In this document: piece after piece, positions 1 to 57,920 of the stretch
Position numbering within the stretch: position 1 is the stretch's first letter
Layout: each line of letters starts with the position of its first letter
DNA from: a virus
Taxonomy: Duplodnaviria; Caudoviricetes
DNA: 57,920 bases
Virus record (IMG/VR): IMGVR_UViG_3300043447_000200
Location: 1 to 57,920 of that record
Reading direction: 5' to 3' (one strand)
Translations under genes and position numbers: made by a program
Notes under the pieces: model-generated
Database searches by the model: none
Told to the model about the DNA's origin: nothing
The model's input: only the letters and a program-made list of their open reading frames with translations

Positions 1-127
1 CATTGATGGCCGGTATTGCGTCAGCTCGAGTGGCCACCAACAATTGGGGCACTGATCTTCGTTTCTATACGCACCCCGATACAACAAGCGGAGTCTCTGA
101 AACTTACGAACGCGCCCGTATCGACTC
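1..127 (+). repeat. Terminal overlap block 1 (copy at 57105-57231)
   Basis: 126/127 identical by manual alignment (T31 vs C57135). Identity ends within GAACGCGCCCGTATCGACTC. Confidence 0.95.
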
Positions 128-641
128 AACCGGCTGCTTTTTTGTAGGAACCACGTCAAAAATTGGCAATCCGAAGATTATGACGATTGCCAACGATAGC
201 ACTGCTGCTTTGCATATTGCCGGTGGCAGCACCAGCATCAACTACGCTTTGAGTTTCTACAACCCATCACTAGGTCAGCCTGGCAGTATCTCTTTTTCTA
301 ATACAACGACAACATACAGCACATCTTCTGACTATCGTCTGAAAGAAGACATCCAGCCAATGGCTGGGGCGCTAGCCCGTGTAGCTTCGCTCAAGCCATG
401 CACATACAAATGGAAACTTGATGGCTCTACTGGTGAAGGTTTTATTGCGCATGAACTGCAAGCGGTTGTACCCAATGCTGTCACGGGCGAGAAAGATGCC
501 ATCAATGAAGACGGCTCAATCAAACCACAAGGCATCGACACCAGCTTCTTGGTCGCGACCCTGACCGCCGCCATTCAAGAGCAACAAGCCATCATCGAAC
601 AGCTCAAGGCTGACGTACAAGCATTGAAGGAGGCAGCATGA
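1..641 (+). CDS. 5'-truncated tail fibre C-terminus with peptidase S74-type intramolecular chaperone (allele A of 56168-57880)
   Basis: SDYRLKEDI...GFIAHELQ...coiled-coil motif. N- and C-terminal parts match the end of the 56168-57880 product. Confidence 0.9.
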   Translation, partial: LMAGIASARVATNNWGTDLRFYTHPDTTSGVSETYERARIDSTGCFFVGTTSKIGNPKIMTIANDSTAALHIAGGSTSINYALSFYNPSLGQPGSISFSNTTTTYSTSSDYRLKEDIQPMAGALARVASLKPCTYKWKLDGSTGEGFIAHELQAVVPNAVTGEKDAINEDGSIKPQGIDTSFLVATLTAAIQEQQAIIEQLKADVQALKEAA

Positions 642-681
642 GCCGCGCATCAACACTAGCAAGAGCAGGCACCGCCCTGGC
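528..681 (+). repeat. Terminal overlap block 2 (copy at 57767-57920)
   Basis: 153/154 identical (synonymous C/T at 554). Confidence 0.95.
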
Positions 682-1909
682 TGGCGATTCATCGGGCAAC
701 GTTTCAGTTGGCGGTAACCTCTTTCTTGGGACAACGTCGCAAGCTTACTCGGCCAAGGTCTTGCGTTCTGATAACTCAGATGCGGCAATCCAAAGCTTCT
801 TGATTCGCAACAACAGCAGCGGTAGCGCATCGAGCTGCGGCTACTTCCTTAACTCCTTCGGTAACTCGTGGGCGATTGAGATGGGATCCACAGCTAAAAA
901 CTCGAACGCCTTGACGTTCAGTGTTGATGCTGTCGGTACGCCTTCTGAAAAGATGCGTTTGGATACGGCTGGCCGCCTTTCCGTTGGAACGCAAAATCCA
1001 ACAGCAGGCGGCTTCAATCCAACTGTTTCTGCCAAATCCTTCTTAGACCAAATCGGCGGCGGGATTATGGTGGAAGCCTATGGCAATGACGCCACATTAA
1101 ATTTGGGGTACGACGGCGCATCCATGTTTATTAGTTCGTCGTACCGAACTTCCGCTGGATACAAGCCTATTGCGATCTATACAAGCGGCGTTGAGCGCGC
1201 TCGTTTTGATAACAGTGGTAACTTTGTAATTGGCTCAACAAGTGCGGCCGCATTGCTGCATGCAAAAGGTCAAAACATTCTTACTGCCAACACCACCTAC
1301 CGCAAAGGCTGGATAGGTGGTGCTGGTTCGTGGGGCAGCAATGCCGTAGAAGAGTTGGTTGTTGGATATAGCGGTATTCGAAGCACATACGCCGGTGGCG
1401 ATGACTGGACCCTCTCGTTTACAGCTGGCACATCTGCGCAAACAAACGCAGGAACGCAGGGCGATAAGCTCCGCTTGACAGCTGGCGGCGTGATGACCAA
1501 ATTTGACTCGAACAACAATACCTACGTTCGAGATCATGGCGTATTTTCTGCGGCCGCATCATTTATTCATATCAAATTTAATCTAACAAAAAATACCGAA
1601 AAGATGCTGGGCTTTCGGCTCTATGGGTTTCTTGCTTACAGCGCTTTTATCGAGAGCTACTACGGCTGTTACCTGTACAACGCCGTTTCAACGCCTTACG
1701 GTTCAATCATAAGAGATGCTGGCAATGCTTCTAACGGGTCCATTTACTACGCAGCTGATGGTTACCTCGTGATTAGCTGCTCAACAAATTCTAATAACTA
1801 CACAGGATTACGTTTGGAGTCACTCGTCCACGGAGGGGATTATGGTGGCGGCGTTGATGTTCAGGTGCTCGCGTACAAAGGGCACTCAGCAAGCACAGGA
1901 GCATATTGA
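638..1909 (+). CDS. Tail fibre / receptor-binding protein with ERARFD/EKMRLD-type repeats
   Basis: 423 aa, G/S/T/N-rich, repeated E[RK]xRxDxxG motifs, ATGA overlap with the upstream gene. Confidence 0.8.
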   Translation: MSRASTLARAGTALAGDSSGNVSVGGNLFLGTTSQAYSAKVLRSDNSDAAIQSFLIRNNSSGSASSCGYFLNSFGNSWAIEMGSTAKNSNALTFSVDAVGTPSEKMRLDTAGRLSVGTQNPTAGGFNPTVSAKSFLDQIGGGIMVEAYGNDATLNLGYDGASMFISSSYRTSAGYKPIAIYTSGVERARFDNSGNFVIGSTSAAALLHAKGQNILTANTTYRKGWIGGAGSWGSNAVEELVVGYSGIRSTYAGGDDWTLSFTAGTSAQTNAGTQGDKLRLTAGGVMTKFDSNNNTYVRDHGVFSAAASFIHIKFNLTKNTEKMLGFRLYGFLAYSAFIESYYGCYLYNAVSTPYGSIIRDAGNASNGSIYYAADGYLVISCSTNSNNYTGLRLESLVHGGDYGGGVDVQVLAYKGHSASTGAY

Positions 1910-8846: not shown

Positions 8847-9431
8847 ATGCTCGACCCTCGAAATCTTCGCAGCAGCCTTGCTCGGCATCTTGGTCAAACC
8901 TTGACGCCAGAGCTTGCTTCGCAGATCGAGATCGAGGCTGGCGTCCAATCAAGTGATTGGCTGAATTTCCACAATCTTGTGGAGCCTCAGGTGTGGGGTG
9001 ATTACATGTTTGCAGCAGAAGATGTCGAACCGATCGCAGGTCAAATCTGCGATATGGCTGGGCAAATGTCTGCCGAACTGTCGTCTGTAACTAGACCGAA
9101 GGCTCCGAGCCAATTTGATCTTATGGCGCTTCAATCGCGTGGTCAGATCACATTCACCATTCGCAAGGGTGGTGACCTCATTGGCATGTGCTTTGTTGCA
9201 CCTGTGCGTGATGGTTGTTCGGACGCTGGCATGTACATCCTGCCAAACCACCGTGGCGGCATGGCGTCCATGCGATTTGTTAAATATATCGAAGAGCAGG
9301 TTCGTCTGCTTGGCGCTAGATGGATGTTGTGGGAGTGTGATGCGAAGTCACGCACTCAGTTGATGGCAAAGCGTATGTGCCATCCACTGATCTCACAACG
9401 ATTTCTAGCCAAGTTTTCCGAAGGGGAATAA
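8847..9431 (+). CDS. GNAT-like acetyltransferase
   Basis: MYILPNHRGG acetyl-CoA-binding-like motif; a common position upstream of podovirus ejection genes. Confidence 0.6.
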   Translation: MLDPRNLRSSLARHLGQTLTPELASQIEIEAGVQSSDWLNFHNLVEPQVWGDYMFAAEDVEPIAGQICDMAGQMSAELSSVTRPKAPSQFDLMALQSRGQITFTIRKGGDLIGMCFVAPVRDGCSDAGMYILPNHRGGMASMRFVKYIEEQVRLLGARWMLWECDAKSRTQLMAKRMCHPLISQRFLAKFSEGE

Positions 9432-9434
9432 GTC

Positions 9435-21022: not shown

Positions 21023-21055
21023 AAGAGCTTAGAGCAATCTAGGCTCTTTCTTTTT
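21023..21055 (+). terminator. Intrinsic terminator for the reconstituted tRNA
   Basis: AAGAGCTTAGA-GCAA-TCTAGGCTCTT followed by a T-tract. Confidence 0.8.
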
Positions 21056-22112
21056 AGGCGACGTGTAGGTTTTGTACATTCGCCCTGTCTGGCACCCGCG
21101 TGACCATGCGTTCCAGCCGCCTTGCCGAGCTGCTCAGATGGGACACATCGAGGTGCGCGTAACGCCTCACCATCGACTCATCCTCCCACCCGCCCAGCTC
21201 CTGGATCCGGTCGAGGGTTTCACCGTCCTGCCGTAGCCAGCTTGCCCAGGTGTGGCGCAAGTCGTGCCACCGAAAGTCGGTGATTCCTGCCTTCTCCAGC
21301 GCCGCTTTCCACATCTTGGGCGGGATGTCCCTGATCTGCTCCCCATCCCAACGCGGGAAAACCAGCGTGTCGTGCTTTCCTACCTGCGCCTTGATGACCT
21401 CGACTGCCACATCGTTGAGGGGGATCGAGAACGGGTTGCCGTTCTTCATGACCTGGCCTGGGAATGTGGCGATCCGTCTGGTCAGGTTGATCTGTGACCA
21501 TTTCAGACCGAACACATTCGCCCGCCTCAGACCGGTCATCACGGCGAATAAAGACATCGCCTGAAACGGTTGAGGCAGAGCTGGCATCAGGCGCATGAAC
21601 TCGTCATGGGTGATATACCGCAGCCGCTCCGACTCTTCGAATGTCGGGAACTTAGGGTTAACCCCTAGCCACATATATTCTCTGGCGCAGGCGTTGATCA
21701 CGGCCCTCAAGAAGCTGAGATACCGGTTGATCGTGCCGTTTGCCAGAGCTTCACCATGCCGATTCTGGCGCTCACGCAACTCGTCGATCACATCCCCCAC
21801 AACTTCGGGGTCTACTTCATCTAGGTAGACGATGCTACGAGACTCGAACTCTTTGTCCCAGAACGCCCGAAATCTGACATCCTCGCGACTCGACTTCTTG
21901 TGCTCGTGCTCTTTCATCCACCGATTTGCACCATCAGTCCACAGGTGCCTCGGCTTATCGCCTAGCCTACGCTCACGCCAAGCCTTGGCCTTCTCTTGAT
22001 CGTGATACTCAAGCGCTTGCTTCTCATCCGTGGTGTGGCATGAAGCTCGGAAGAACTTACCCTTCACCCAGAACTGATACCACCACACATTTCCTCGACG
22101 GTAAATTGCCAT
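21054..22112 (-). CDS. int: Tyrosine recombinase / phage integrase
   Basis: TGLRR, KNG, HDLRHTWAS, LGGW and RRYAH catalytic motifs; N-terminal arm-binding domain. Confidence 0.97.
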   Translation of the reverse strand: MAIYRRGNVWWYQFWVKGKFFRASCHTTDEKQALEYHDQEKAKAWRERRLGDKPRHLWTDGANRWMKEHEHKKSSREDVRFRAFWDKEFESRSIVYLDEVDPEVVGDVIDELRERQNRHGEALANGTINRYLSFLRAVINACAREYMWLGVNPKFPTFEESERLRYITHDEFMRLMPALPQPFQAMSLFAVMTGLRRANVFGLKWSQINLTRRIATFPGQVMKNGNPFSIPLNDVAVEVIKAQVGKHDTLVFPRWDGEQIRDIPPKMWKAALEKAGITDFRWHDLRHTWASWLRQDGETLDRIQELGGWEDESMVRRYAHLDVSHLSSSARRLERMVTRVPDRANVQNLHVA

Positions 22113-23750: not shown

Positions 23751-24187
23751 ACCTCACCTCGCTCTTTCAGAATCGCCATGCCAGCGTAGACGATTGCACC
23801 CAAGACCTCGGTCTCGAACGCAACGCCTTCGCGTGTGCTTGCGGCTTCTTCAAGTTTCTTGGCGGCTTGGCCAGTGGCGAAACCACGACCATGCATGTTC
23901 ACATAGTGAACCCAAGGCTGATCTTTGAAAGGTGTCACAGCACCGCCGTGACGCTCACCCTTGCCGAACATGGCTTGCTCGATCGCAGCCATGAACACTG
24001 GATACAACGGGTGAGTTGTGGCGTCAGGCTTTTCCATCATCCGCTCCATACTGCACTCGGAGGAATGCATCGAGGTCTTCCTTGTGGAAGCGCCACTGAC
24101 GACCAACCTTACCTGCTGGCAAACGCTTTTCACGAGCCAGCTTGCGTAGCGAGAACACACTGATACCCAGGTATTTCGCCGCTTCAA
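23747..24187 (-). CDS. Conserved phage hypothetical protein (start uncertain)
   Basis: GKGERHG...GQAAKK..EA...LGAIVY. Confidence 0.65.
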   Translation of the reverse strand: MKRRNTWVSVCSRYASWLVKSVCQQVRLVVSGASTRKTSMHSSECSMERMMEKPDATTHPLYPVFMAAIEQAMFGKGERHGGAVTPFKDQPWVHYVNMHGRGFATGQAAKKLEEAASTREGVAFETEVLGAIVYAGMAILKERGEV

Positions 24188-25032
24188 AAATCGACATCAT
24201 ATTTTGGTTCCTGACTTTTTAATTTTTGAAATTGCGCACAGAACGGGGCAACTTCGCAGTAGCCTTCGCAACGTCTGCTCATGCCAGGACGCTCCTCAAC
24301 ATAATGATCGTCTGGCACTACCCCGAGTTCGTCGCGTGTAGGCGCTACTTTCTTTGCGCGCTTCCCACCCACTTTCATAAGGGCGTAGCTTGTGCCCGTG
24401 TACCACCGCTCCTCCTCGGTGCATTCGACCTCTTCACCAGCCTCTGAGCGTTGATGCATTTGCACACGAGCCTGAGCGTATGCCTCTGCATCATCCAAAG
24501 ACCAGACCGGAACTTCGATGACGGCGACATTCTGCTTTGGGTAATCGTCTTTGCGCTCCGCCTCTGCCCGCTTCCAATCACGGAATATGGCAACGACCTG
24601 CAAACGATCAACCTTGTAGCCGTTCTTGTGGGCCAGCCAACGCAACATGTTGAGCTGTCGCTCCCATGAAACATCGCCTTTGGCTTTGTAGACTGAGCAA
24701 ACTTTCCAGTCTTGCAGAACGCTGTCAGCAAGGTGCAAGCGATCAAACTGACCACTGACCTTCCAACCATTCACCTCGGCGTAAAGACGCTGCTCAACCA
24801 AGGCGTTGGTTCCTGCGCGTTCAAGGACGGTGTGAACCGCCTGACCCATCAAGGACCAAATTCTCTCAGATACATCCTCAACCACAAAATCCTTGTGCAT
24901 CTTGTAGAGGGTGCGCCGTCTTGGTGCATCAATGAGCTTGGTCACAGAGATATCGCCCCCACCGGTGTAAGGGTCATTCTTCACGGCGTTGACCAAGGCG
25001 TCTGGCAACCCGTGGATGTTGGTCAAGTTCAT
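24184..25032 (-). CDS. PD-(D/E)XK exonuclease (Cas4/RecE-like)
   Basis: G.AVH..LE, SGQFD, DWK, QLN motifs and a C-terminal Cys cluster (RCEGYCEVAPFC). Confidence 0.85.
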   Translation of the reverse strand: MNLTNIHGLPDALVNAVKNDPYTGGGDISVTKLIDAPRRRTLYKMHKDFVVEDVSERIWSLMGQAVHTVLERAGTNALVEQRLYAEVNGWKVSGQFDRLHLADSVLQDWKVCSVYKAKGDVSWERQLNMLRWLAHKNGYKVDRLQVVAIFRDWKRAEAERKDDYPKQNVAVIEVPVWSLDDAEAYAQARVQMHQRSEAGEEVECTEEERWYTGTSYALMKVGGKRAKKVAPTRDELGVVPDDHYVEERPGMSRRCEGYCEVAPFCAQFQKLKSQEPKYDVDF

Positions 25033-25926: not shown

Positions 25927-26568
25927 TTACTCCTTGGTCTCTGCGGGTTGTTGTTTTGCTTCGGCGATCTTGGCTTGTAGTCGAGCGATCACATCAGCGG
26001 TATGAACAAGCGGGAGCTTGTCGATGGAAGCGATGCCATAGGCATCAGCAATCTTTTGCACATCAACGCCTGCTGACTTGGCTAGCTTGTTGATGGCGTT
26101 CACCTCGTTGACTGTGACCACCGCGGGAGGTGCGGCCACAACCTGATGGGTGGTCTTGTCGGCGTCGTTGTCGCCCTCTGTGGGGATGCAGAAGGCTTGC
26201 ATGCATGCGTACTTGTACGCCGCACTCATGGCCTTATTCGTGGCCTTGTCGCCGCTGTCCATGGCTTCACCGCACACGCTGATCACATGGGTTGAGCCGT
26301 CCTTGGCTGAGACCAAGTGGAAGTCGACATCCACATTCACATAGAACAGGACGCCACCGCGTTGGGTTTGGCGCTCCGTGACGGTGCGACCCTTCACATA
26401 GGGGAGGATGCACAACTGAGCTTCTGACAGGATGGGCGCCAGGGCGTTGTACACATCGTCAATGCCGCGGAAGTTGTAGCCCTGCTGGTCGTTCTTGCGA
26501 TCTTTCGAGATGCCCTGCTTGCCGATCTCTGCCATCACCGCAGAGATAGCGGTGTAGACATGCGGCAC
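25927..26568 (-). CDS. erf: ERF-family ssDNA annealing protein (start uncertain)
   Basis: YNFRGIDDV and GEAMDSGDKATNKAMSAAYKYA...F.IPT.GD.DAD motifs. Confidence 0.9.
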   Translation of the reverse strand: MPHVYTAISAVMAEIGKQGISKDRKNDQQGYNFRGIDDVYNALAPILSEAQLCILPYVKGRTVTERQTQRGGVLFYVNVDVDFHLVSAKDGSTHVISVCGEAMDSGDKATNKAMSAAYKYACMQAFCIPTEGDNDADKTTHQVVAAPPAVVTVNEVNAINKLAKSAGVDVQKIADAYGIASIDKLPLVHTADVIARLQAKIAEAKQQPAETKE

Positions 26569-26912
26569 CGCCGCATTTGATTCCTCTTTTTTCAATTGAT
26601 TACTCCGGTTTAGGTACGCGATACTGCGCAAAAATCTCACTTGACACGATGCGTTAAGTGTGGAGCAGATTGTAGTGGAGTGTATCTCCATGTTGCACTA
26701 GGGGTTTTCACCAATAGCACCGGCATTTTCGTGACAGATAATACAACTGTCTGTTTCGTCTAGGTTTTTTAGGTTTCACAACGTACAACAAAGACAACGG
26801 TGCGGATCTTACTGAGCAGTAATGCACCTTGTCTAGCCTGTACAAACCCTTCCTGTACTACCTAGGTATTCAACAGATATTCTTAACTGAACTTAAAACA
26901 ACGCAGAGCAAC

Positions 26913-35311: not shown

Positions 35312-35322
35312 ATTTATTTTCC

Positions 35323-44212: not shown

Positions 44213-44446
44213 ATGGCAGCACGCATGCGCAAATACCATCAAGACGAAGTGAGGGCGAAAATCCAAGCTTCGCAGCTCGTCAACCGTCTGACCGATTGCG
44301 CGATGGGCAGAGTTGTACTCAACACACAACAAGTCCAGGCGATCAAGGTCCTACTGGACAAGTCTCTCCCCAACCTGTCCGACGTGAAGATCGAAACGTC
44401 AGGTAACGGCATCACGTTCAACCTCAATGCCAATCTTCCGAAATGA
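44213..44446 (+). CDS. Terminase small subunit (putative)
   Basis: Directly upstream of TerL; RAKIQASQLVNRL...LLDK.LP.L. Confidence 0.6.
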   Translation: MAARMRKYHQDEVRAKIQASQLVNRLTDCAMGRVVLNTQQVQAIKVLLDKSLPNLSDVKIETSGNGITFNLNANLPK

Positions 44447-45906: not shown

Positions 45907-45908
45907 TC

Positions 45909-47912: not shown

Positions 47913-47919
47913 GGCAATC

Positions 47920-48243
47920 ATGACCAAACCATTCCAAGGTAAACAGACCCCCGCCGAAGAGCGCGCAGAAGCTCGCATGGTTCGTTCGGGGAAGATGACT
48001 CCAGCTCAGTACGCCGCCGCAGAGAAGCGTGAGGGCGATACCAAATCAAAGGCTTCGCTCGAGTCCCGCGGTCGCGAGCTGGCCAGCGGTCGCATGAGCG
48101 CCGACAAGTACGCCGCAAGCGCACCCGACATGCGCAAGATGGCAGACGGTGGCTTGGTGTCCGGCATGGGCTTCCATGCACCCAACACACCCACCGGTGT
48201 ATGCGGCCCTGGCGTTCGTAGCCAGCAAGACTATCGCAAGTGA
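47920..48243 (+). CDS. Hypothetical protein
   Basis: GAGG RBS; KMADGGLV motif. Confidence 0.65.
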   Translation: MTKPFQGKQTPAEERAEARMVRSGKMTPAQYAAAEKREGDTKSKASLESRGRELASGRMSADKYAASAPDMRKMADGGLVSGMGFHAPNTPTGVCGPGVRSQQDYRK

Positions 48244-48249
48244 TTTGCA

Positions 48250-48483
48250 ATGCTAGGGAAAACACCAGCTAGAGTCATTGCAGCGTTGGCCTCATTGGAG
48301 GGCAACAGTGATTTTGAAGAGGTTTGTAAGTGGCTCAGTGATTCACTGAACGACATACGAACCTTGAATGATTCGACCAAGGATGAAGTTCAGACTCGGT
48401 GGAATCAAGGAGGATCGCAAGTGTTGGCCGATTTTCTCGAGAAGAAAGCCACTGCTCGCGCCACCCTCTACAAGATGAAGTAA
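48250..48483 (+). CDS. Small head-region protein (between portal and scaffold)
   Basis: Position and R..QG motif. Confidence 0.6.
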   Translation: MLGKTPARVIAALASLEGNSDFEEVCKWLSDSLNDIRTLNDSTKDEVQTRWNQGGSQVLADFLEKKATARATLYKMK

Positions 48484-48581
48484 ACCGCCCCGTCGGGGCA
48501 AACGCTTGCTCAGTGGCGTTCACTGGCACCGAGAACACCGGAACGAAGTGTAGGGAAAACCCTTAGAGGCCCCGAACCGAA

Positions 48582-49547
48582 GTGAAGGCTCAAGGAGATT
48601 TTGATTTGGAAGCAACCCTACCACGCTCTGTCCAAGAGGCAGAAAGAAAGGCAGAAGAAGCTCTTCAACGACTGCAAGCTGCTCGTCAGCCGCAGCCACC
48701 ACAGGCAGATCCAGCTCCGGCTCCTGCCGATCCGCAACCGGCCACACCGCCTGTTGCGAGCGCACCTTCAGCGCCAGCCGCAGATCCTGCGCCAGCGCCC
48801 ACCAACACCCCTTCCGAGGGAGACGACAAGTGGGAAGCACGGTACAAGACCTTGCATGGCAAGTACAACGCTGAGGTTCCGCGGTTGCATGCGGCGCTCA
48901 AAGAGCGCGAAAGCAAGTTGAATAGCCTGACCGAAGAGGTGGAGGCGTTGAAGGCGCAGATGGAGGCTCGTAAAGATCCTCTCGTCAAGCCAGAGGAAGT
49001 GAATGAGTTTGGTGAGCCACTCGTTGATCTGATCCGTCGCGCAGCGCGTGAAGAGGTTCAGGCCAAGGATCTGGAAATTCAGCAGCTCAAGCGTCGTGTC
49101 GACTCTGTTGAGACCACGAAGGTGCAGGACAAAGAGATCAGCTTTTATGAGAAGTTGAATCAGGATGTCCCGAACTGGATGGCAATCAACGACGACCCCG
49201 CATTTCACGCCTGGCTCGGTGAGGTCGATGACCTTACAGGCGCACAACGTCAGGCCATTTTGTCGGCGGCTGAGGAGCAGCGCGATGCGGATCGCGTTGC
49301 CAGATTCTTCAAAGCGTTTGAACGGGTGCAAACAAATAACGCGGCGACAGCTTCGGCTTCGCTTGACGCGCAGACTGCGCCGGTGACATCGCGAGTCGAT
49401 GTTCCACCGCAGGGCAAGAAGATCTGGACTCGAGCAGAGATCGCAGACTTTTATGCCCGTGACCGCAGAGGCGAGTTGAGTGAAAAGGATGCTGCTGCCA
49501 TTGATGCAGAAATTCAGTTAGCTGTTCGCGAGAATCGTGTCAGGTAA
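48582..49547 (+). CDS. Capsid scaffolding protein (true start possibly TTG 48606)
   Basis: Pro/Ala-rich N-terminus, WEARYKTLHGKYNAEV, coiled coil; upstream of the capsid gene. Confidence 0.8.
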   Translation: MKAQGDFDLEATLPRSVQEAERKAEEALQRLQAARQPQPPQADPAPAPADPQPATPPVASAPSAPAADPAPAPTNTPSEGDDKWEARYKTLHGKYNAEVPRLHAALKERESKLNSLTEEVEALKAQMEARKDPLVKPEEVNEFGEPLVDLIRRAAREEVQAKDLEIQQLKRRVDSVETTKVQDKEISFYEKLNQDVPNWMAINDDPAFHAWLGEVDDLTGAQRQAILSAAEEQRDADRVARFFKAFERVQTNNAATASASLDAQTAPVTSRVDVPPQGKKIWTRAEIADFYARDRRGELSEKDAAAIDAEIQLAVRENRVR

Positions 49548-49571
49548 CTGAGCACCTAAAAGGTACTCAAA

Positions 49572-50549
49572 ATGTCTTTAGCAGTTAACAGCGGTTACTA
49601 CACCTCAGGCCAAACCACCGACGCCTACTCCGGCAACTTCATCCCCGAAATTTGGTCGGGCAAGTTGCAAGTCAAGTTCTACAAATCGACCGTCTTGGGC
49701 GAAATCACGAACAACGACTGGGAAGGCGAGATCAAGGGCCAAGGCGACAAGGTCAACATCCGCACCATCCCAACGATCACCGTTCGTAACTACACCAAGG
49801 GTCAGAACTTGACCAACGAAGTGCCACAAAGCACTCCGATCGAGTTGAACATCGACAAGGGCAAGTACTTCGCCGTGGTCTTGGACGACGTCGACGCTAC
49901 CCAAGCCGATGTGAAGTTGATGGACATGTTCACCAACGACGCATCTCAGCAAATGAAGATCTCTGTGGACGGCGACGTTCTGGGTTCTGTCTACGCTGAC
50001 GCAGCCTCCGCCAACAAAGGCGCAACTGCTGGCGCCATCTCTGGCGACATCAACTTGGGTGCCACTGGCGCTCCTCGTCAGGTGACCGCCGCCAACGTGC
50101 TCGACATGATCTTGGACATGGGCCAAGTGTTGGATGAGCAGAACGTGCCCGAAGATGGCCGCTGGGTCGTGTTGCCCGTGTGGATGACCAGCTTGATCAA
50201 GCGCTCTGACTTGAAGCAAGCCTACCTGACCGGCGACACCGTTACTCCTTTGCGTAACGGCAAGATCGGCATGATCGACCGTTTCACCGTGTACTCGTCT
50301 AACAACCTGGCTTCGGTGAACGACCTGGGTGCTGACGCTGCTTCCGGTGGTACTGGTGGTAACGCCGACTACAAAGCATGGCGCATCTTGGCTGGCACTC
50401 GTGACGCGATCTCTTTCGCTTCACAGATGACCAACGTCGAGACCCTCCGTGCTCAGTCGACATTCGGCAACATCGTGCGCGGCTTGAACGTGTACGGCTA
50501 CAAAGTGACAAAACCCGAAGCTTTGGTTTCTGGTTACGTCCGTAAGTGA
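49572..50549 (+). CDS. Major capsid protein
   Basis: FIPEIWSGKL...GDKVNI...VRGLNVYGYKV..PEAL; strongly biased codon usage. Confidence 0.92.
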   Translation: MSLAVNSGYYTSGQTTDAYSGNFIPEIWSGKLQVKFYKSTVLGEITNNDWEGEIKGQGDKVNIRTIPTITVRNYTKGQNLTNEVPQSTPIELNIDKGKYFAVVLDDVDATQADVKLMDMFTNDASQQMKISVDGDVLGSVYADAASANKGATAGAISGDINLGATGAPRQVTAANVLDMILDMGQVLDEQNVPEDGRWVVLPVWMTSLIKRSDLKQAYLTGDTVTPLRNGKIGMIDRFTVYSSNNLASVNDLGADAASGGTGGNADYKAWRILAGTRDAISFASQMTNVETLRAQSTFGNIVRGLNVYGYKVTKPEALVSGYVRK

Positions 50550-50568
50550 TCCGCAAGGATTGACTAAA

Positions 50569-50602
50569 GGGGAGGATGGGAAACCGTTCTCCCCATTTTT
50601 TT
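50569..50602 (+). terminator. Intrinsic terminator after the capsid gene
   Basis: GGGGAGGATGG-GAAA-CCGTTCTCCCC followed by a T-tract. Confidence 0.85.
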
Positions 50603-50619
50603 AACCAACAGGAACTTGT

Positions 50620-50949
50620 ATGACACAGAAGCTTTTGCGACAAAAAGGTACCGGCGAGATCTACGTCTGGACAGAAACTCTGGCCGCTCGCGACGACATG
50701 GAATTGATCGAGCGTGGCGCCCCTGCCCCGCAACCCGAAGTAGCCGAGCAACCTCAAGAGTCGGAAGCAGTGCAACAAGAGCAAGAGCAAGCTCCTGAGG
50801 CAGAAAACACCAGCCAAAATTCAGACAGTGCCAGCGCGGAACCCGAGCCTGATCCTGCCTTGAACGAGGCGATGCAGGCTTTTCGCAGACAGGTAGGTAA
50901 AGGCGGTAAGAAAGCCGCTGAACAAGACCAACCAACGGGTGACGCATGA
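50620..50949 (+). CDS. Hypothetical protein
   Basis: Acidic low-complexity ORF with AGGA RBS. Confidence 0.7.
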   Translation: MTQKLLRQKGTGEIYVWTETLAARDDMELIERGAPAPQPEVAEQPQESEAVQQEQEQAPEAENTSQNSDSASAEPEPDPALNEAMQAFRRQVGKGGKKAAEQDQPTGDA

Positions 50950-51632
50950 TCGCATCGGACGTAATCTCTCGCGTAAGGAATTTGCTGAACGACACTGATT
51001 CAGCAAATTACCGCTGGACTACGTCCGAGCTTCTTAGCGCGATCAACGACGCACAAGGCGTCATCGCAACCCACCGCCCAGATGCATCGTCAGTTGTTGG
51101 CGATGTCACTCTGATCGAAGGCCCCGCACAAACCATCACCGGCAAGCGTCTGATCGACGTTGTCGGCAATGTCAGTTCTGCTGGCGTTCTAGGCCGTGCA
51201 GTCACACTGGTTGATGGCAGCGTGATCGACGCATTCGATCCTTCGTGGCGCTCTGGAGTCAGGAAGTCATCCGTCAAGCACTACATCTACGATCCTCGCA
51301 ACCCACTGGTGTACGAGGTCTACCCGCCTGTCTTGGCTGACACCAAGCTGCGAATCAAATATGCATCCAACCCCGCGCCCGTTTCGGCAGAGGGCAACAC
51401 ACTGAGCGTTTCGGACGCGTACTTAGAACCAGTGGTCATGTACGTGATGTTCAAGGCTTACTCCAAAGATGCCGAGTTCTCTGGCAACGCCGTGCTTGCA
51501 GCTCAATACCTGGGCTTGTTCAACAGCCTGCTCGGTATCAAGACCACCAAGGACAACTCGTTCAGCCCCGCGGCAAACCGCAGAGGCGACACGTCTAAGG
51601 CTGCTGGCGCACAAATGGGCGGTGTCCTATGA
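50946..51632 (+). CDS. Head-tail adaptor-like virion protein
   Basis: RW...ELL..INDAQ...RPD...YPP...AYSKDAE. Confidence 0.7.
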   Translation: MIASDVISRVRNLLNDTDSANYRWTTSELLSAINDAQGVIATHRPDASSVVGDVTLIEGPAQTITGKRLIDVVGNVSSAGVLGRAVTLVDGSVIDAFDPSWRSGVRKSSVKHYIYDPRNPLVYEVYPPVLADTKLRIKYASNPAPVSAEGNTLSVSDAYLEPVVMYVMFKAYSKDAEFSGNAVLAAQYLGLFNSLLGIKTTKDNSFSPAANRRGDTSKAAGAQMGGVL

Positions 51633-52279
51633 GTTCATACGAAGCATTCTTCCCCTACGTTCTGCCAGAGGTCATCGGTGCACCCGAGCCTTTGGTCATC
51701 AATGCAATCCGCAACTCGGTCATCGAGTTCTGTGAAAAGAGCCTTGTGCTCACCCGCGACCATGATCCCGTGACGGTCTTGCCTGGAATCGTGGACTACG
51801 ACCTGGAGCCGCCTGGCGGTTACCTCGTGGTTAAGGTTATGCAGGCATGGCTCGACAACCAGCCGCTGGATCCTTTGGCGCCTGACTTCGTTCGTGAAGC
51901 GTCGGTCTACAACCGCCTCTTCGAATCCTACGAATCAGCCCCCTCTACGCCTCGTTTCTACCTCCAGAAAGACGAGCGCACGATCACCGTCTGGGAGCTG
52001 CCAGACAAGAAGTACACGAATGGCTTGACCATGCGCGTGGCCTTGAAGCCAACCCGAGCCTCGACAGAGGTTGAGGATGTGGTGTTCGAGGACTACGCCG
52101 AGACCATCGCTGCTGGCGCAATCATGCGTCTGATGATGTCTCCTGGTAAGGCATACACAAACATGGACCTTGCTGCGGTGCACAAGGGCATCTTCAACCA
52201 AGGCATCAACACAGCCAGACAGCGCGCAACGCACGGTCAGGTTCGCTCAGTGATGTCGGTCAAGCTACGAAGGATCTGA
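51629..52279 (+). CDS. Second adaptor/tail-tubular-like virion protein
   Basis: P.PL...AIR....EFCE...IA.GA..RL...PG. Confidence 0.65.
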   Translation: MSSYEAFFPYVLPEVIGAPEPLVINAIRNSVIEFCEKSLVLTRDHDPVTVLPGIVDYDLEPPGGYLVVKVMQAWLDNQPLDPLAPDFVREASVYNRLFESYESAPSTPRFYLQKDERTITVWELPDKKYTNGLTMRVALKPTRASTEVEDVVFEDYAETIAAGAIMRLMMSPGKAYTNMDLAAVHKGIFNQGINTARQRATHGQVRSVMSVKLRRI

Positions 52280-52280
52280 C

Positions 52281-52613
52281 ATGGCCGAGAAAATCAAACT
52301 CGTCCAAGGCGACACACGACCAGCGATTGTGGTGACCCTTACCGATGACATCACCGGTGAGGCAATCAACATCACTGGCGCTTCCGTGGTGATGCGCTTC
52401 CGCGCTGTTGGCAGCGCAACGCTTCAAGCGACGGTTACCGGCTCTGTGACCAACGGATCCGCTGGCCAGTGCGCCTTCTACCCCGCCTCAGCTCCTCAGA
52501 TGCTCACCGGCGATGCTGGCGACTACGAGGGTGAGATCGAGATCACATTCTCAGACAACACCAAGCAGACGGTGTACGACGTCATCAAGTTCAAGATGCG
52601 CGAGGACTTCTGA
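52281..52613 (+). CDS. BppU N-terminal-like virion protein
   Basis: QGDTRP...G.Y.GEIEITF.D....T. Confidence 0.6.
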   Translation: MAEKIKLVQGDTRPAIVVTLTDDITGEAINITGASVVMRFRAVGSATLQATVTGSVTNGSAGQCAFYPASAPQMLTGDAGDYEGEIEITFSDNTKQTVYDVIKFKMREDF

Positions 52614-53524
52614 TGCCGGCCAATGTAACGCCCAACACCACAAGAGCCACTGTCTCGGTCATCACGGCCAGAGCCAGTGTGTCTGTTGTCGTGCCTGTTG
52701 TTGGCGTTACGGTCGCTGTTCCTGTTGCCTACATCAGCTACATCCTGATCACGCCATCTGCCTACACCGACACCACAGGCCGATTCAAATACGTTGTGGA
52801 TTCAGTTGTCATGGCAGACGCCAAGAGCATCGCTCTGGCCAAAGCCTTGTCAGACGCGATCGGCGTTGCTGACAGCGCTCCGGTGTTCAGTGTCAACAAG
52901 AGCTTGACAGACAGTGTGGGCTTGAGCGAGGCGTTCGCTCGCACACTGGTTTACATCCGCAACTTTGCAGACGCCGCAAACATCACAGACGCAGCCGCTT
53001 TCTCGGTGGTGAAGGCTTTGGCCGATACCGCCTCGATGAGCGACTCGGCTACCCGAACCCTGGCCAAGCGGCTTTCTGATGGCGTGGCTATGAACGACTC
53101 GTTCGACGCCACCGATGGATCTCAGTGGGCGTTAACCAAGGGTGTGAACAACGTTGTTCTCGCAACCGACAGCAGGACCACTGCGTTCTCCAAAGCGCTG
53201 GCCGACACAATCGGGTTGCTTGATAGCGTTTCATTCAGCACTTCCAAGTCATTGGCTGATGTTGCGGTCATAGGAGATGCGCATGCGTTTGCGATCGGGA
53301 TAGCCAAATCTGAATCAGTTTCAGCAACCGAGAGCTTTGCGTTTGGTTTCAATTTAGCCCAGCGCCAAGACTCAATTCTCGTGTCGGATTCTTCGACGCG
53401 AACGCCCACGAAGGGCTTATCTGAATCTGCGTCGTCAGCCGACGCCGGATACCTGTATTCGCAGGGGTACTGCGATATAACCTACTTCGCATCCGATTAC
53501 GTCGGCGCGTACAGAACCTTTTAG
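52613..53524 (+). CDS. Virion protein with about 19-aa KALAD/KSLTD repeats
   Basis: Repeats visible in the translation; YFASDYVG C-terminus. Confidence 0.65.
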   Translation: MPANVTPNTTRATVSVITARASVSVVVPVVGVTVAVPVAYISYILITPSAYTDTTGRFKYVVDSVVMADAKSIALAKALSDAIGVADSAPVFSVNKSLTDSVGLSEAFARTLVYIRNFADAANITDAAAFSVVKALADTASMSDSATRTLAKRLSDGVAMNDSFDATDGSQWALTKGVNNVVLATDSRTTAFSKALADTIGLLDSVSFSTSKSLADVAVIGDAHAFAIGIAKSESVSATESFAFGFNLAQRQDSILVSDSSTRTPTKGLSESASSADAGYLYSQGYCDITYFASDYVGAYRTF

Positions 53525-53532
53525 GAACAAAC

Positions 53533-53982
53533 ATGCTTCAAGAAAATATCAAAGTCACTGGCAACGTTTTGGTACAACTGTTCGACAAGAACGGCAACGT
53601 CAAAGAAGAGCGCGAGATCAAGAACCTTGTGGTCACCGCAGGCAAGGGCTTCATCGCCGCGAGCATGCTCAAGACCACAACCAACTCGCCAGCCGCAATG
53701 AGCCACATGGCTATCGGCGCGACCAGCACCGCCGCAGCAAACGGCGACACAGCCTTGGGCAGTGAGCTTGGTCGAGTGAGCTTGGCTTCTGCAACCAACT
53801 CTGGCGCAGTGACCACATACACCGCCTCCTTCCCCGCTGGTACCGGTACTGGTGCTGTGGTGGAGGCTGGCATTCTGAACAACTCGAGCGGTGGCACGAT
53901 GCTTTGCCGCACTGTGTTCGCCGTGGTGAACAAGGGTGCTGACGACGCGATGAGCATTACTTGGGCGATCACGGTCTCCTAA
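53533..53982 (+). CDS. Tail-collar/fibre base protein
   Basis: NLVVTAGK...TALGSELGR...EAGILN...VNK. Confidence 0.65.
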   Translation: MLQENIKVTGNVLVQLFDKNGNVKEEREIKNLVVTAGKGFIAASMLKTTTNSPAAMSHMAIGATSTAAANGDTALGSELGRVSLASATNSGAVTTYTASFPAGTGTGAVVEAGILNNSSGGTMLCRTVFAVVNKGADDAMSITWAITVS

Positions 53983-53994
53983 TAGGAGGGCGGC

Positions 53995-54207
53995 ATGTCA
54001 ACCATAACACTGCGCAACACAAAGGGCTCTCCCCTTACAAACACCGAGGTCGACAACAACTTCTCCAACTTGAACACAGACAAGATGGAGAAGAGCAGCA
54101 ACCTCAGTGACTTGGCGAGCGCGTCGACAGCAAGAACCAATCTGGGCGTATTAAGCGCCGCAGAGGTTCAAGAGCAGGCGATCGCGTTCTCCATCGCGCT
54201 CGGATAA
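53995..54207 (+). CDS. Small virion protein
   Basis: KGSPLTNTEVDNNF..L...AIAFSIALG. Confidence 0.7.
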   Translation: MSTITLRNTKGSPLTNTEVDNNFSNLNTDKMEKSSNLSDLASASTARTNLGVLSAAEVQEQAIAFSIALG

Positions 54208-54216
54208 GGAAGTACC

Positions 54217-54543
54217 ATGGCATTCAAATCAAAAGTAACGGCAAACATCAGCACATCAGGTAGCCCCTCAACCGTGACACCCACGGTGAGCAGCGGCACG
54301 ACCGCTACGCTGATTGGCTTGTCGCTGGCTAACACCACCGCGGTCAACATCACCGTGTCTGCCAAGCTGGTTAAGGCTGATGCGTCAAGCGGCTTCTTGG
54401 TGAAGGATGCCACGGTTCTACCTGGTGGCGCATTGGCCATCGTTGGCGGCGACCAGAAGGTCGTGCTTGAGGCTGGTGACTCGGTCACTGCATATGCAAG
54501 CGCAAGCAACTCTGCTGACGCCGTTGTCTCGTACCTAGTGTAA
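54217..54543 (+). CDS. Virion structural protein
   Basis: Beta-rich; KVVLEAGD motif. Confidence 0.7.
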   Translation: MAFKSKVTANISTSGSPSTVTPTVSSGTTATLIGLSLANTTAVNITVSAKLVKADASSGFLVKDATVLPGGALAIVGGDQKVVLEAGDSVTAYASASNSADAVVSYLV

Positions 54544-54553
54544 GGAGCCGATT

Positions 54554-55900
54554 ATGGGAATGATCGGCAACACGCTAGCTCAAGGCCTCATCAGCGGGGC
54601 CAACATCCAAGACGGTACGGTTGATACAGCCGACATCAAATCGAACGCGATCACGCCTTCGAAGCTGTCGATCGGTGCGCCGACTTGGGATAGTGCTGGC
54701 AACTTAGGCATTGGTACCGCATCGCCAAGCGTTCAACTGCATGTTTACAAAAACGCTGTTGGCGCGGCTAACCTTTTCCTTGAGAACGCCAGCACCTCTG
54801 CCGGTTCTTACGGCACAGTTCAATTCAACGCTGGCACAGTGACATCGCAGTTGTTCTCTGATGCTGCCGGTGGTGTTTACACCGCTGGTGCTGTTTTAAG
54901 AACGACATCAAACCACCCGCTCATTTTTGGTACGAACAGTGCAGAACGCGCCCGTATTGATGCTAGCGGAAATTTTGGTGTTGGCACTGCAAGTCCTGCT
55001 ACAAAGCTTCATGTTGTCAGCTCTTCAAGCCAAGTGGCTCGATTTATTCGTGACAACACGAGCAACGCATCTGGCGGCATTGACATTGGCAACAACAGCC
55101 GTATCTGGACCATATACGGCGACAATTCAGCCCTTTCCTTTTGGGATACCACTGCCGCAGCAGAGCGCGCCCGTATCGACTCCAGCGGCGTTTTCTCCGT
55201 AACAAAGGGAAGCTCTGTACTAGCAGTTTTTGGCGACACCTCAAACTCTACCGACAAGTACATCCGAATCGGAAACAGTAGCGGCAACTTTGAAATGGGT
55301 ACAGCAGGGTCTGCTGGCCACTACCTTTATGGGGTTGGCTCGCTTCCTTTGACGTTCTGGACAAATCAAACTGAACGCTTCCGCATCGACTCCGGTGGAT
55401 TTGTCACCGCCAAAAAATACATTACACAGCATTCCGAAAACGGTAGCTCAATTGCAATGGCTAGGGCATACAGCCTGCCAAGCTACACCTACAACGCAAA
55501 CGGCAATTGGTACAACAGCACTGTGAGGATTGGCAGATTCGGTACTGGTGGCGGGCGCTTGCGCGGCAGAATCCTTTTTGCCGGCGACTTCAACTACGCG
55601 TATCAAACTGCCGTACTCGAGTTTGATATGAAAGTTTGGAACGGTCAGGTTGATAACTTCTGCTTTGCGGCATCGGAAGTGATGGGCTTCGTAGGCGCTC
55701 AATTTGCCACCGACTCAAGTCGCTACATTTATTTCAATCATGGCTATTTGTGGTCGCAGGACTGCCAACTAATTATTGAAGCGGAAGACGGATTTGAACT
55801 GGCCATCAGTGGCGCACAAGATTACCACTCAGTAACAAGACCATGGCGTGGGGTGGCGGCTGGTTCAGCCTTGCAGTATGAGGTTACGTATGGAACATGA
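54554..55900 (+). CDS. Tail fibre / receptor-binding protein with ERARID repeats
   Basis: GIGTASP and three ER(A/F)RID motifs; divergent C-terminal head. Confidence 0.85.
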   Translation: MGMIGNTLAQGLISGANIQDGTVDTADIKSNAITPSKLSIGAPTWDSAGNLGIGTASPSVQLHVYKNAVGAANLFLENASTSAGSYGTVQFNAGTVTSQLFSDAAGGVYTAGAVLRTTSNHPLIFGTNSAERARIDASGNFGVGTASPATKLHVVSSSSQVARFIRDNTSNASGGIDIGNNSRIWTIYGDNSALSFWDTTAAAERARIDSSGVFSVTKGSSVLAVFGDTSNSTDKYIRIGNSSGNFEMGTAGSAGHYLYGVGSLPLTFWTNQTERFRIDSGGFVTAKKYITQHSENGSSIAMARAYSLPSYTYNANGNWYNSTVRIGRFGTGGGRLRGRILFAGDFNYAYQTAVLEFDMKVWNGQVDNFCFAASEVMGFVGAQFATDSSRYIYFNHGYLWSQDCQLIIEAEDGFELAISGAQDYHSVTRPWRGVAAGSALQYEVTYGT

Positions 55901-56168
55901 TTACACTGAACAAGAAATTGCCTTGACCATGAAGGCGTTTAGCTGCACACGCGAGCAGGCTATCGAAAATCACTGCGCTTCTGTTCGATCCGCAATGGCG
56001 GAAACAAGAGCGCAGTTCGATGCTACGCGCTATCAGCGTGATCGCCGCCTTGAGTACCCACCTATCGGAGATCAGCTCGACGCCCTGTTTCATGCTGGCG
56101 TGTTTCCACCCGAAATGGCTGCGCAGATTCAGGCGGTAAAAAATAAGTACCCGAAAGGCAGTGCGTAA
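55890..56168 (+). CDS. Small fibre-associated (assembly/chaperone-like) protein
   Basis: YQRDRRLEYPPIGDQLDAL...VKNKYPK. Confidence 0.7.
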   Translation: MEHDYTEQEIALTMKAFSCTREQAIENHCASVRSAMAETRAQFDATRYQRDRRLEYPPIGDQLDALFHAGVFPPEMAAQIQAVKNKYPKGSA

Positions 56169-57880
56169 TGTCGTACATCGGAAACACCCCAGGCGTATCG
56201 TCACAACGCATTGTTGACACCTTCATCGCAACGGCTGGGCAAACCACATTCACAACATCCAGCGGCTACACCCCTGGCTATGTTGATGTTTACTACAACG
56301 GCGTCAAGCTAGTTGCAGGAGATGACTTCACCGCAGCCACAGGCTCAACCATCGTGTTGGCCAGTGGTGCTGCGCTCGGTGACTCGATCGAGATCGTTGC
56401 TTACCTGCCTCGTGGCTTGAGTGACGGTTACCTCAAGTCTGAGGCTGATGCTCGATATGTTGCACTCACCGGTGCGCAGACGATCGCTGGCGTCAAAACC
56501 TTTTCGAGCCAGTTGGTTGGCATAGCAGGTACTGCCGGTGCGCCAGCCATCACCACCACCGGTGACCTCGACACAGGCATCTTCTTCCCTGCTGCCAACA
56601 CGCTCGCGTTTTCAACCAACGGCACAGAGGACGCTAGGTTTGATGCCAGCGGTAATTTGCTTGTCGGTACATCAACGACGGTTTCAAAAGCAACTGTGTT
56701 TGGAACAGGGAATCAGTTTGTCAGCGTAATTTCGCCAACAGGAAGCTCAACTCAAGTTGGTATTAACCTAAACCCTAGCATGACCGCTGCTGAAGCGGCA
56801 GCTAACCCTGCTCAAGCTGCAATCTATGCGGTTGACAGCAACTACTCCGCAAACATTATTTTTGCGAACAAAGCAACAGGTGCTCTTGGAAATGCGTTGA
56901 CAGAACGCGCCCGTATCGACTCCAGCGGTAATTTGCTGGTGGGTCGCACAAGCGCAGAAGGTACAACACCGTCGAAAATTCAATTGGTTGGCTCAGGCAA
57001 CTTTACTTCGACAACAGTCACTCGCGCCAACACAGCCGGTATCTACCTGACGGAATCGTCTAACACGGCAAATTACGGAACCGGCATTTGGTTTGACCAC
57101 GGCTCATTGATGGCCGGTATTGCGTCAGCTCGAGCGGCCACCAACAATTGGGGCACTGATCTTCGTTTCTATACGCACCCCGATACAACAAGCGGAGTCT
57201 CTGAAACTTACGAACGCGCCCGTATCGACTCCAGCGGTAACTTGCTGGTGGGGACTACCACTGCCAGCGCAAAGGTATCGATCAACGGTGGTATGTTTGC
57301 AACCGGTATAGGTGACCTTTGTATCATCAATAGCAACGATGGTATTTCTGGAGCTGGTTTTGGCTTAGGGGTTAACAGAACAAACGCAGACGGAAACGCT
57401 GTCTACTTCTGGCGAGCTGGCTCTTTCAAGGGTGCGATTGTTGTAAGTACTGGTGGTACGTCATATACAACGGCTTCTGACTACCGCCTGAAAGAAAACG
57501 TCACACCTATGACAGGTGCGTTGGCCCGTGTCGCAGCGCTAAAACCTGTCACATACAAATGGAAGGCTGACGGCTCGGATGGTGAGGGCTTTGTTGCTCA
57601 TGAACTGCAAGAGGTTGTTCCAACTGCGGTATCTGGTGAGAAAGATGCTACACGCATTGAGCAGTACGAGATCAGCCCCGCTGTGCCAGCTACGTTTGAC
57701 GAAGAAGGCAATGAGCTAACACCCGCAGTCGAGGCTGTGATGGGCGAGCGTGAAGTGCCTGTCTATCAAGGCATCGACACCAGCTTCTTGGTTGCGACCC
57801 TGACCGCCGCCATTCAAGAGCAACAAGCCATCATCGAACAGCTCAAGGCTGACGTACAAGCATTGAAGGAGGCAGCATGA
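56168..57880 (+). CDS. Tail fibre with ERARIDSSG repeats and C-terminal peptidase S74-type chaperone (allele B)
   Basis: MSYIGN..., VYYNGVKL, repeats, SDYRLKEN...GFVAHELQ. Confidence 0.9.
   Translation: MSYIGNTPGVSSQRIVDTFIATAGQTTFTTSSGYTPGYVDVYYNGVKLVAGDDFTAATGSTIVLASGAALGDSIEIVAYLPRGLSDGYLKSEADARYVALTGAQTIAGVKTFSSQLVGIAGTAGAPAITTTGDLDTGIFFPAANTLAFSTNGTEDARFDASGNLLVGTSTTVSKATVFGTGNQFVSVISPTGSSTQVGINLNPSMTAAEAAANPAQAAIYAVDSNYSANIIFANKATGALGNALTERARIDSSGNLLVGRTSAEGTTPSKIQLVGSGNFTSTTVTRANTAGIYLTESSNTANYGTGIWFDHGSLMAGIASARAATNNWGTDLRFYTHPDTTSGVSETYERARIDSSGNLLVGTTTASAKVSINGGMFATGIGDLCIINSNDGISGAGFGLGVNRTNADGNAVYFWRAGSFKGAIVVSTGGTSYTTASDYRLKENVTPMTGALARVAALKPVTYKWKADGSDGEGFVAHELQEVVPTAVSGEKDATRIEQYEISPAVPATFDEEGNELTPAVEAVMGEREVPVYQGIDTSFLVATLTAAIQEQQAIIEQLKADVQALKEAA
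56903..57252 (+). repeat. 41-nt direct repeat (56903-56943 and 57212-57252) bounding one fibre module
   Basis: GAACGCGCCCGTATCGACTCCAGCGGTAAYTTGCTGGTGGG, 40/41 identical. Confidence 0.95.
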
Positions 57881-57920
57881 GCCGCGCATCAACACTAGCA
57901 AGAGCAGGCACCGCCCTGGC

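Follow-up and report, generated by a model that had tools for sequence, protein, structure and literature searches.

The stretch of DNA analysed here, referred to as the window, is a complete IMG/VR virus record (IMGVR_UViG_3300043447_000200; Caudoviricetes) of 57,920 bases, which carries three tail-fibre genes divided between its two ends. Fibre genes 1 and 2 lie at the right end and fibre gene 3 lies at the left end, where it is preceded by the C-terminal part of a second allele of fibre gene 2 (Table 1). These genes contain repeated copies of a short in-frame element, called the motif or junction, whose fuller form is ER(A/M)RIDSSGN(LLVG) and which separates modules of the fibre proteins. 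The DNA of the motif is conserved beyond codon bias, both in the window and across IMG/VR. The motif is a real module edge and is probably a site of crossover, one of several in these genes. The original prediction, made from the letters alone, was that of an in-frame cassette system anchored on microhomology, which mixes receptor-binding modules within and between phages. Its observation is confirmed and its interpretation is partly supported, as explained below.

An exact 17-mer, GARCGCGCCCGTATYGA, is found at 108, 54944, 55163, 56903 and 57212, always on the plus strand and read as ERARID, just as had been described, and the mean number of matches in 100 shuffles is 0.00. When up to 3 mismatches are allowed, the copies at 1193 (2 mismatches) and 55373 (3 mismatches) are added, together with an unrelated minus-strand match at 32243. 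The third degenerate copy that had been named, EDARFDASGNLLVG at 56627, is 71% identical to the 41-mer, and an additional one, EKMRLDTAGRLSVG, is present at 947. In total, five exact and four degenerate direct copies are distributed over the three fibre genes, and the plus-strand copies read in frame as ER(A/F/M)R(I/F/L)D followed by (S/T/A/N/G)(S/G/A/T)G. The window contains no inverted pair of motifs and no long direct repeats besides the 41-mer family.

The copies at 56903–56943 and 57212–57252 are identical at 40 of 41 positions (98%), which reproduces the earlier count. Using the codon frequencies of the window (CGC 0.40, GCC 0.35, CGT 0.21 and TCC 0.12), the chance of 12 shared codons is about 6e-7 as a product of per-residue probabilities. 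These frequencies, together with the position-specific codons seen across IMG/VR, rule out codon bias as the cause of the identity. The modules between the copies had been described as unrelated and AT-richer and this holds. Here, blastp detects no significant mutual similarity between them, the best alignment (E 1.6e-4 over 30 residues) covering the loop directly after the motif, and the two alternative tips of fibre 2 (tip A and tip B) do not match each other. The GC content is 0.45–0.52 in the modules, 0.52–0.64 in the motif copies and 0.55 in the whole window.

Table 1. Features of the window that bear on the fibre junctions and on recombination.
Feature	Position	Strand	Basis or remark
Fibre gene 1 (P0001, 448 residues)	54554..55900	+	No S74 domain; three motif copies; phrog_18345 tail fiber, E 3e-17
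Junction copy ERARIDASGNFGVG	54944..54985	+	Exact 17-mer, fibre gene 1
Junction copy ERARIDSSGVFSVT	55163..55204	+	Exact 17-mer, fibre gene 1
Degenerate junction copy ERFRIDSGGFVTAK	55373..55414	+	3 mismatches, fibre gene 1
Small open reading frame after fibre gene 1	55848..56168	+	phrog_9114; paralogue at 1906-2202 after fibre gene 3
Fibre gene 2, allele A (P0002, 570 residues)	56168..57880	+	C-terminal Peptidase_S74 chaperone; PF13884, E 1.8e-12
Degenerate junction copy EDARFDASGNLLVG	56627..56668	+	Anchor/shaft boundary, fibre gene 2
Junction copy ERARIDSSGNLLVG	56903..56944	+	Fibre gene 2; includes GCTGGTGG at 56935-56942
Module M2	56945..57211	+	Also in 30 other proteins with other neighbours
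Junction copy ERARIDSSGNLLVG	57212..57253	+	Left edge of the two-allele cassette; includes GCTGGTGG at 57244-57251
Allele A cassette	57233..57766	+	Tip module and N-terminal part of S74
Second DNA-conserved patch, QGIDTSFLVATLTAAIQEQQ of S74	57758..57836	+	Right edge of the cassette; also at 528-614
Fibre gene 2, C-terminal part, allele B (P0003)	3..641	+	Record starts within the gene; PF13884, E 7e-14
Allele B junction copy ERARIDSTGCFFVG	108..149	+	First 20 bases as in allele A
Allele B cassette	129..534	+	End-overlap comparison
Fibre gene 3 (P0004, 423 residues)	638..1909	+	Open reading frame; no Pfam or PHROG match
Degenerate copies of fibre gene 3	947-988 and 1193-1234	+	
Tyrosine integrase (lysogeny)	21054..22112	-	PF00589, E 2e-29; no tie to the junctions
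Exonuclease	24184..25032	-	phrog_2139, E 3e-43
ERF-family single-strand annealing protein	25927..26691	-	PF04404, E 7e-23; phrog_155, E 3e-38

Across IMG/VR, the motif was sampled in two ways. A scan with the 17-mer yielded at least 120 stretches. Among the matches listed, ERARIDxxG is encoded by 111 of the 123 full-length ones, which lie in fibre-like contexts and differ in their flanks, and the 42-mer of the window is reproduced exactly in 20 of the 123. As this sample is seeded on DNA, a peptide-level scan was added, using ERARID(S/T)(S/T)GN with any codons, and the first 80 matches listed, which hold 81 copies, provide a codon-unbiased sample. In these 81 copies, Ala3 is encoded by GCC at a frequency of 0.77 versus 0.17 in the background of the same open reading frames, and Val13 by GTG at 0.77 versus 0.17. 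In addition, the same residue favours different codons at different positions: Ser7 is TCC (0.55) and the neighbouring Ser8 is AGC (0.61); Leu11 is TTG (0.66) and Leu12 is CTG (0.61); Arg2 is CGC (0.50) and Arg4 is CGT (0.52); and Gly9 is GGT (0.58) and Gly14 is GGG (0.53, with a background of 0.11). Such a pattern is explained neither by codon bias nor by translational selection and instead indicates shared descent of the DNA.

The conserved island extends from approximately -12 to +50. Of 2997 pairs of copies, 59 match at 40 or more of the 42 positions, and both 60-nt flanks fall below 50% identity in 57 of them. When loci were collected by protein similarity, the codons of the window were found in 4 of 4 ERARID copies and in 0 of 6 ERMRI copies. 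The exact 41-mer is absent from 185,579 prokaryote species (one genome each), and no copy of a 26-base degenerate form turns up in 401 genomes belonging to a single proteobacterial order. The peptide DLRFYTHPDTT, which lies just upstream of the last motif of the window, occurs in 0 IMG/VR stretches.

The proteins offer a structural context for this element. Fibres 1 and 2 are matched by PHROG tail-fibre families, and the SDxxxK motif of the S74 chaperone is present as SDYRLKE in both P0002 and P0003. P0001 aligns with PDB entries 8ojn (E 4e-7) and 8ond (bd2133; E 4.7e-5), which are MAT fibres of Bdellovibrio, and the alignment covers the motif together with the loop after it. For bd2133, the start of the first beta-helix domain is placed at the G of 'TSGNLG' (PMC10769870). 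This domain start and the alignment over the motif suggest that ER(A/M)RIDSSGN(LLVG) recurs as a structural element in trimeric beta-helical fibres of the Bdellovibrio MAT / Peptidase_S74 kind, and that shaft modules would start there. For P0002, the comparison with solved fibres gives a weak match only (E 0.14). An AlphaFold2 monomer model of P0002, built from a 6-row alignment, is poor, with a mean predicted local distance difference test score of 40.6 and a predicted template modelling score of 0.19. Each of the two phrog_9114 paralogues follows an S74-less fibre gene, and these small open reading frames may encode separate fibre chaperones.

The tip of fibre 2 exists in two alleles, which became visible from the ends of the record. 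Positions 1–128 match 57105–57232 with 1 mismatch and positions 535–681 match 57767–57920 with 1 mismatch, and the middle of this overlap (129–534 versus 57233–57766) is in part unalignable and in part approximately 70% identical. Identity therefore falls from 99% to these values and returns, and it does so at two patches whose DNA is conserved elsewhere. At the left edge, divergence begins after the 20th base of the motif, and it was already predicted that the allele swap begins at this element. The right edge lies at QGIDTSFLVATLTAAIQEQQ, in the C-terminal helix of the S74 chaperone, for which blastn finds 80–94% identity in approximately 20 other viral loci. The S74 part of the two alleles carries many synonymous differences. 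Taken as a whole, the pattern is one of replacement and not of gradual divergence.

The record itself is explained by the same overlap. In close relatives, the gene order runs from fibre 2 to fibre 3 and then to window position 2206 onward. In addition, a contig of 3502 nt from sequencing run X1 holds 57225–57920 with allele A and continues past the record end. The end overlap, the gene order of the relatives and this contig show that the record is a circle that was assembled once round and then into the second allele. Due to the imperfect end overlap it is classed in IMG/VR as 'linear', though it closes to a circle of approximately 57.2 kb.

Evidence for exchange at the motif comes from cassettes that are shared between otherwise unrelated fibre genes. 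In one pair of contigs (L056/L136), the sole shared part is a 225-bp cassette, 97.3% identical, which runs from one motif copy to the next. A second pair (L244/L245) shares a 362-bp motif-M2-motif cassette at 97.8% with unrelated flanks, and a third (L246/L248) shares 285 bp at 85%, breaking at motifs. Breaks at motifs are also seen in the patchwork of L155/L196 and at the left edge of L242/L243. Assembly chimeras are an unlikely source of these shared cassettes, which are less than 100% identical and come from contigs whose sample numbers differ. With high-scoring segment pairs (HSPs) restricted to 93% identity or more, the motif holds 4 of 16 ends versus 1.3 expected (p 0.03). All 26 internal ends of these HSPs were also judged by eye: the motif, or a variant outside the search pattern such as EAMRLDSAGN, accounts for 7, a second conserved element, GVAYLNGSKVVTSGSALTFDG, accounts for 3, and 16 lie elsewhere or are unreadable.

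The element GVAYLNGSKVVTSGSALTFDG exactly ends high-identity segments in three independent contig pairs (L155, L196, L115, L120, L199 and L222), and it may be a second junction type.

The modules were also followed one by one. Module M2 occurs in 30 other proteins of 314–953 residues, with 44–78% identity and with starting points from residue 45 to residue 592. An alignment of these proteins shows a single conserved motif-M2-motif block amid variable neighbours: module M1 accompanies it in 1 of the 30, tip A weakly in 4, S74 in 17 and the N-terminus in 5. The expectation that each module would be found beside different neighbours stands for M2, whereas both tips are orphans. The protein search finds no relative for tip A (P0002 residues 363–436) and, among longer proteins, none for tip B (P0003 residues 44–108), both negatives being weak evidence as the search needs shared words.

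Assembled contigs from four runs labelled freshwater or aquatic metagenome provide a further view of the junctions. These contigs break at 56900–56903, 56938–56943, 57211–57227 and 57258, with several continuations, and the summed depth over 57148–57345 is 3–10 times that of neighbouring bins. In runs X2–X4, the similarity of relatives to the window ends at 56643, which is inside the degenerate copy at 56627. Run X1 may be the source sample of the record and is not independent. It gives no cover over 54970–56550. Contig joints such as 54975 to 56900 and 56923 to 57215 were set aside, their sides being only 21–39 letters long and possibly from other genomes.

The reading that we favour on balance, with some reserve, is that fibre modules are exchanged by homologous recombination located at the motif. 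Here, the constrained peptide would make its coding DNA one of the few places with 20–42 near-identical bases between unrelated fibre genes. Crossovers inside the motif, driven by this homology, would then join modules in frame and at a structurally safe site, and repeated exchange would spread and homogenise the motif DNA across a large pool of metagenomic phages. In the record, a polymorphism of the fibre-2 tip in the population, with allele A at the right end and allele B at the left, has the motif as its left bound and the conserved patch of S74 as its right bound.

The acting enzymes could be a phage annealing protein with an exonuclease, such as the pair encoded here, or the host's own system. 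That the phage encodes both ERF and an exonuclease had been proposed, and both are recovered as profile matches (Table 1). A role for them at the junctions is suggested by published work on other phages. For example, Erf/Exo of phage D3 reportedly equals lambda Red in efficiency, including on substrates of 78% identity, and exchanges are reported in which the longest perfect stretch is 41–49 bp (PMC3945230).

Several observations weigh against this reading, and some of them speak for its main rival. In that rival view, joins arise anywhere by illegitimate or relaxed recombination, selection retains those joins that are in frame and at domain edges, as only these work, and the DNA conservation of the motif stems from common ancestry or from translational selection on a peptide that is critical. 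The breakpoints had been expected to be non-random relative to the motif, and the count over whole open reading frames shows no enrichment there. When all HSP ends inside motif-bearing open reading frames were counted (at least 150 bp and at least 80% identity), 20 of 271 fall at the motif versus 19.0 expected (p 0.44), and a wider margin gives 21 versus 27.0. By identity class, 38 of 693 ends lie at the motif versus 45.6 expected at 80–88%, and 6 of 61 versus 4.7 at 88–93%. The excess at 93% or more depends on two contig pairs. A local count, in which 24 of the 67 3' ends within -300 to +340 of a motif fall at 0 to 59, is explained in part by a lack of ends just beside the motif.

The closest relatives add to this. 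Contigs L234 and L235 are 93–96% identical to the window over 2206–11109 and, when compared over window 53823–57905 and 637–2206, have all three fibres replaced past short N-terminal anchors. Their breakpoints lie near 54714, 56451, 57876–57905 and 2206, that is, at other domain edges and at no ERARID copy. Cassette exchange between phages, as proposed originally, is supported by the motif-edged cassettes and not by these nearest relatives, and mixing of modules within one genome is not evidenced in the comparative data. In addition, the left edge of the window's own allele swap shares 20 bases only, which is short for a homology-driven crossover, and no donor is traceable, as both tips are orphans. 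All comparative data come from assembled metagenome contigs. Conservation of the motif DNA is also partial: the exact 17-mer is present in just 18 of the first 80 matches of the peptide scan, and third-position identity, which had been put forward as a check, is higher inside the motif than in its flanks (approximately 0.28) but ranges from 0.30 to 0.79 there, with several haplotypes.

Many codons of the motif are C-ending or otherwise common, in favour of the rival. However, translational selection does not predict TCC followed by AGC, TTG by CTG, CGC by CGT or GGT by GGG. Further, a filter of selection does not account well for identical 42-mers between unalignable flanks or for cassettes that end inside the motif in five pairs. 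Overall, we regard selection acting as the only filter as rather unlikely, though it is the strongest of the rivals. Other junctions exist besides the motif, and these are the edge of the N-terminal anchor, the C-terminus of S74 and the ends of genes.

In L234 and L235, S74 is carried by fibre 3 and not by fibre 2 as in the window, and a perfectly conserved 30-nt patch stays at the overlap of the fibre-2 stop and the fibre-3 start.

The junction core raises the question of whether the DNA has a function of its own. The octamer GCTGGTGG, which is the Chi sequence of E. coli and may not be that of this phage's host, is included in the best-conserved 8-mer windows of the motif (offsets 30–33; 0.73 versus 0.20–0.63 elsewhere in the motif). 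In the codon-unbiased sample, 25 of the 35 LLVG copies contain it, where background codons would give approximately 1%. The boldest reading is that the 42-nt junction is an evolved DNA recombination signal, an in-frame linker under second-order selection for exchangeability across uncultured phages, whose Chi-type core recruits host RecBCD to module edges; we consider this distinctly unlikely. The simpler proposal, in which a Chi-type octamer modulates host RecBCD, either protecting phage DNA or stimulating adjacent exchange, is given a small chance only. The window has four GCTGGTGG copies, all on the plus strand and two of them within motifs. Moreover, in three proteobacterial genomes with related prophage or phage contigs, the octamer outnumbers its reversed control by a factor of 2.1–3.7. 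Against this, the 4 copies in the whole window compare with 2.96 expected, and 112 of 150 octamer copies lie outside the open LLVG frame, the octamer being common in other frames of Gly/Ala-rich genes. In addition, TTG at Leu11 (26 of 30) and GGG at Gly14 (21 of 30) are equally conserved and are not needed by the octamer, suggesting that a longer stretch is shared by descent. A structured RNA is not indicated either, as the folding of 57200–57270 is no better than that of shuffles (z -0.22). On these grounds (the Leu11 and Gly14 codons, the window count and the other frames), the octamer was not established as more than part of that longer stretch.

An assembly artefact was also considered, in which a 31–42-nt repeat of co-occurring phages makes assemblers jump and creates, among others, the two end 'alleles' of the record. 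It would explain the breaks and branches at motif edges in contigs from each of the four runs, and an imperfect end overlap is typical of a graph bubble. Even so, it is very improbable. The DNA conservation of the motif is independent of assembly, the shared cassettes are 85–98% identical and lie on contigs with different sample numbers, a single base separates the two alleles in each of their flanks, which are identical otherwise, and the 3502-nt contig from run X1 contains allele A from 57225 onward and extends beyond the record end.

Shufflon-like, site-specific rearrangement of the repeats by the tyrosine recombinase encoded in the window is scarcely credible: the repeats are all direct and lie on the same strand, with no inverted pair of motifs, the recombinase lies approximately 33 kb away at the place expected for a lysogeny integrase, and the motif is found as single or direct copies in hundreds of contigs. 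The window yields no match to RVT_1 or to Resolvase (serine invertase). The original prediction was thus correct in finding no reverse transcriptase or invertase of the serine type and in excluding both a shufflon and a diversity-generating retroelement (DGR), and it made no mention of the tyrosine integrase.

The phage is temperate, as it encodes the tyrosine integrase. Among annotated phages, the sole match to the fibre region is a weak one to Roseobacter phage CRP-7 (69.7% over 191 nt), and window 44443–54543 has no match. Relatives of the portal protein are found on two 57-kb contigs in metagenome-assembled genomes (MAGs; 80% identity) and on three more contigs at 41%. The former two (L236 and L237; 57,146 and 56,755 bases) belong to MAGs that carry the labels Gammaproteobacteria and Ilumatobacteraceae. 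As these two contigs probably represent whole phage genomes that were binned with cells, the MAG labels are weak evidence for a host. A search with P0002 against four genomes of portal relatives gave one weak match (E 2.5e-5), which is uninformative on junctions or host. Elsewhere in the window, GATase_4 and Amidoligase_2 genes lie side by side among the early genes (34325–36801, minus strand), and one open reading frame of 3078 residues lies downstream of the tail genes (11606–20842, plus strand).

Tail fibres set which bacteria a phage infects, and most of what is known of their natural reshuffling comes from a small number of cultured phage groups. In the present case, many uncultured phage contigs have a single short in-frame DNA patch in common, which often lies exactly at the edges of exchanged modules. 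It provides a concrete sequence with which to ask whether exchange is driven by homology or whether selection keeps joins at domain edges, and it indicates points of joining that are natural and tolerated by the structure, which can serve in the comparison of fibre modules.

Exchange at conserved fibre motifs is already known from the T-even phages, and it is this instance that is new and unusually widespread. In the literature searched, supplements being outside the search, the string RIDSSGN is absent and none of the papers among the matches listed describes this junction. In the T-even phages, distal tail-fibre and adhesin genes recombine between conserved motifs (Tetart et al. 1996, 1998, as cited in Trojet et al. 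2011, PMC3157838). As in the window, their receptor-binding genes alternate between conserved motifs and hypervariable segments. In the window, the motifs flank the variable segments and offer DNA homology between otherwise diverged genes. The T-even case concerns another protein family, another motif and other phages, and the present data are comparative and metagenomic, without crosses; a further difference is that the motif DNA here is common to contigs with unalignable flanks. For crossovers at the motif itself, the five cassette pairs and the window alleles fit the T-even pattern; the null result over open reading frames and the breaks of the nearest relatives do not.

The closest structural likeness is to the MAT fibres of Bdellovibrio bacteriovorus (Caulton et al. 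2024, PMC10769870), which have an ERxRIDxSGN-type repeat, beta-helix domains and both S74 and non-S74 ends; fibres 1 and 3 of the window, which lack S74, resemble the non-S74 members in this. For these fibres, the authors infer evolutionary 'tip swapping'. Unlike the fibres described here, they are cellular proteins of a predatory bacterium, and the passages of the main text that describe them make no claim on DNA conservation of the motif or on recombination, though the supplement may describe the motif.

In terms of mechanism, the nearest system is the relaxed, Rad52-like recombination of temperate phages (De Paepe et al. 2014, PMC3945230), which likewise involves Erf and an exonuclease, accepts short imperfect homology, and was tested on regions that include side tail-fibre genes. 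The regions of partial identity used there, as reported in that paper, were 300–3353 bp, in contrast to an in-frame patch of 20–42 bp that occurs several times per gene here. Finally, shufflons and DGRs also diversify receptor-binding tips. Shufflons use inverted sites, whereas the window has no inverted repeats, and DGRs use a reverse transcriptase and a template/variable repeat pair, whereas the window has neither.

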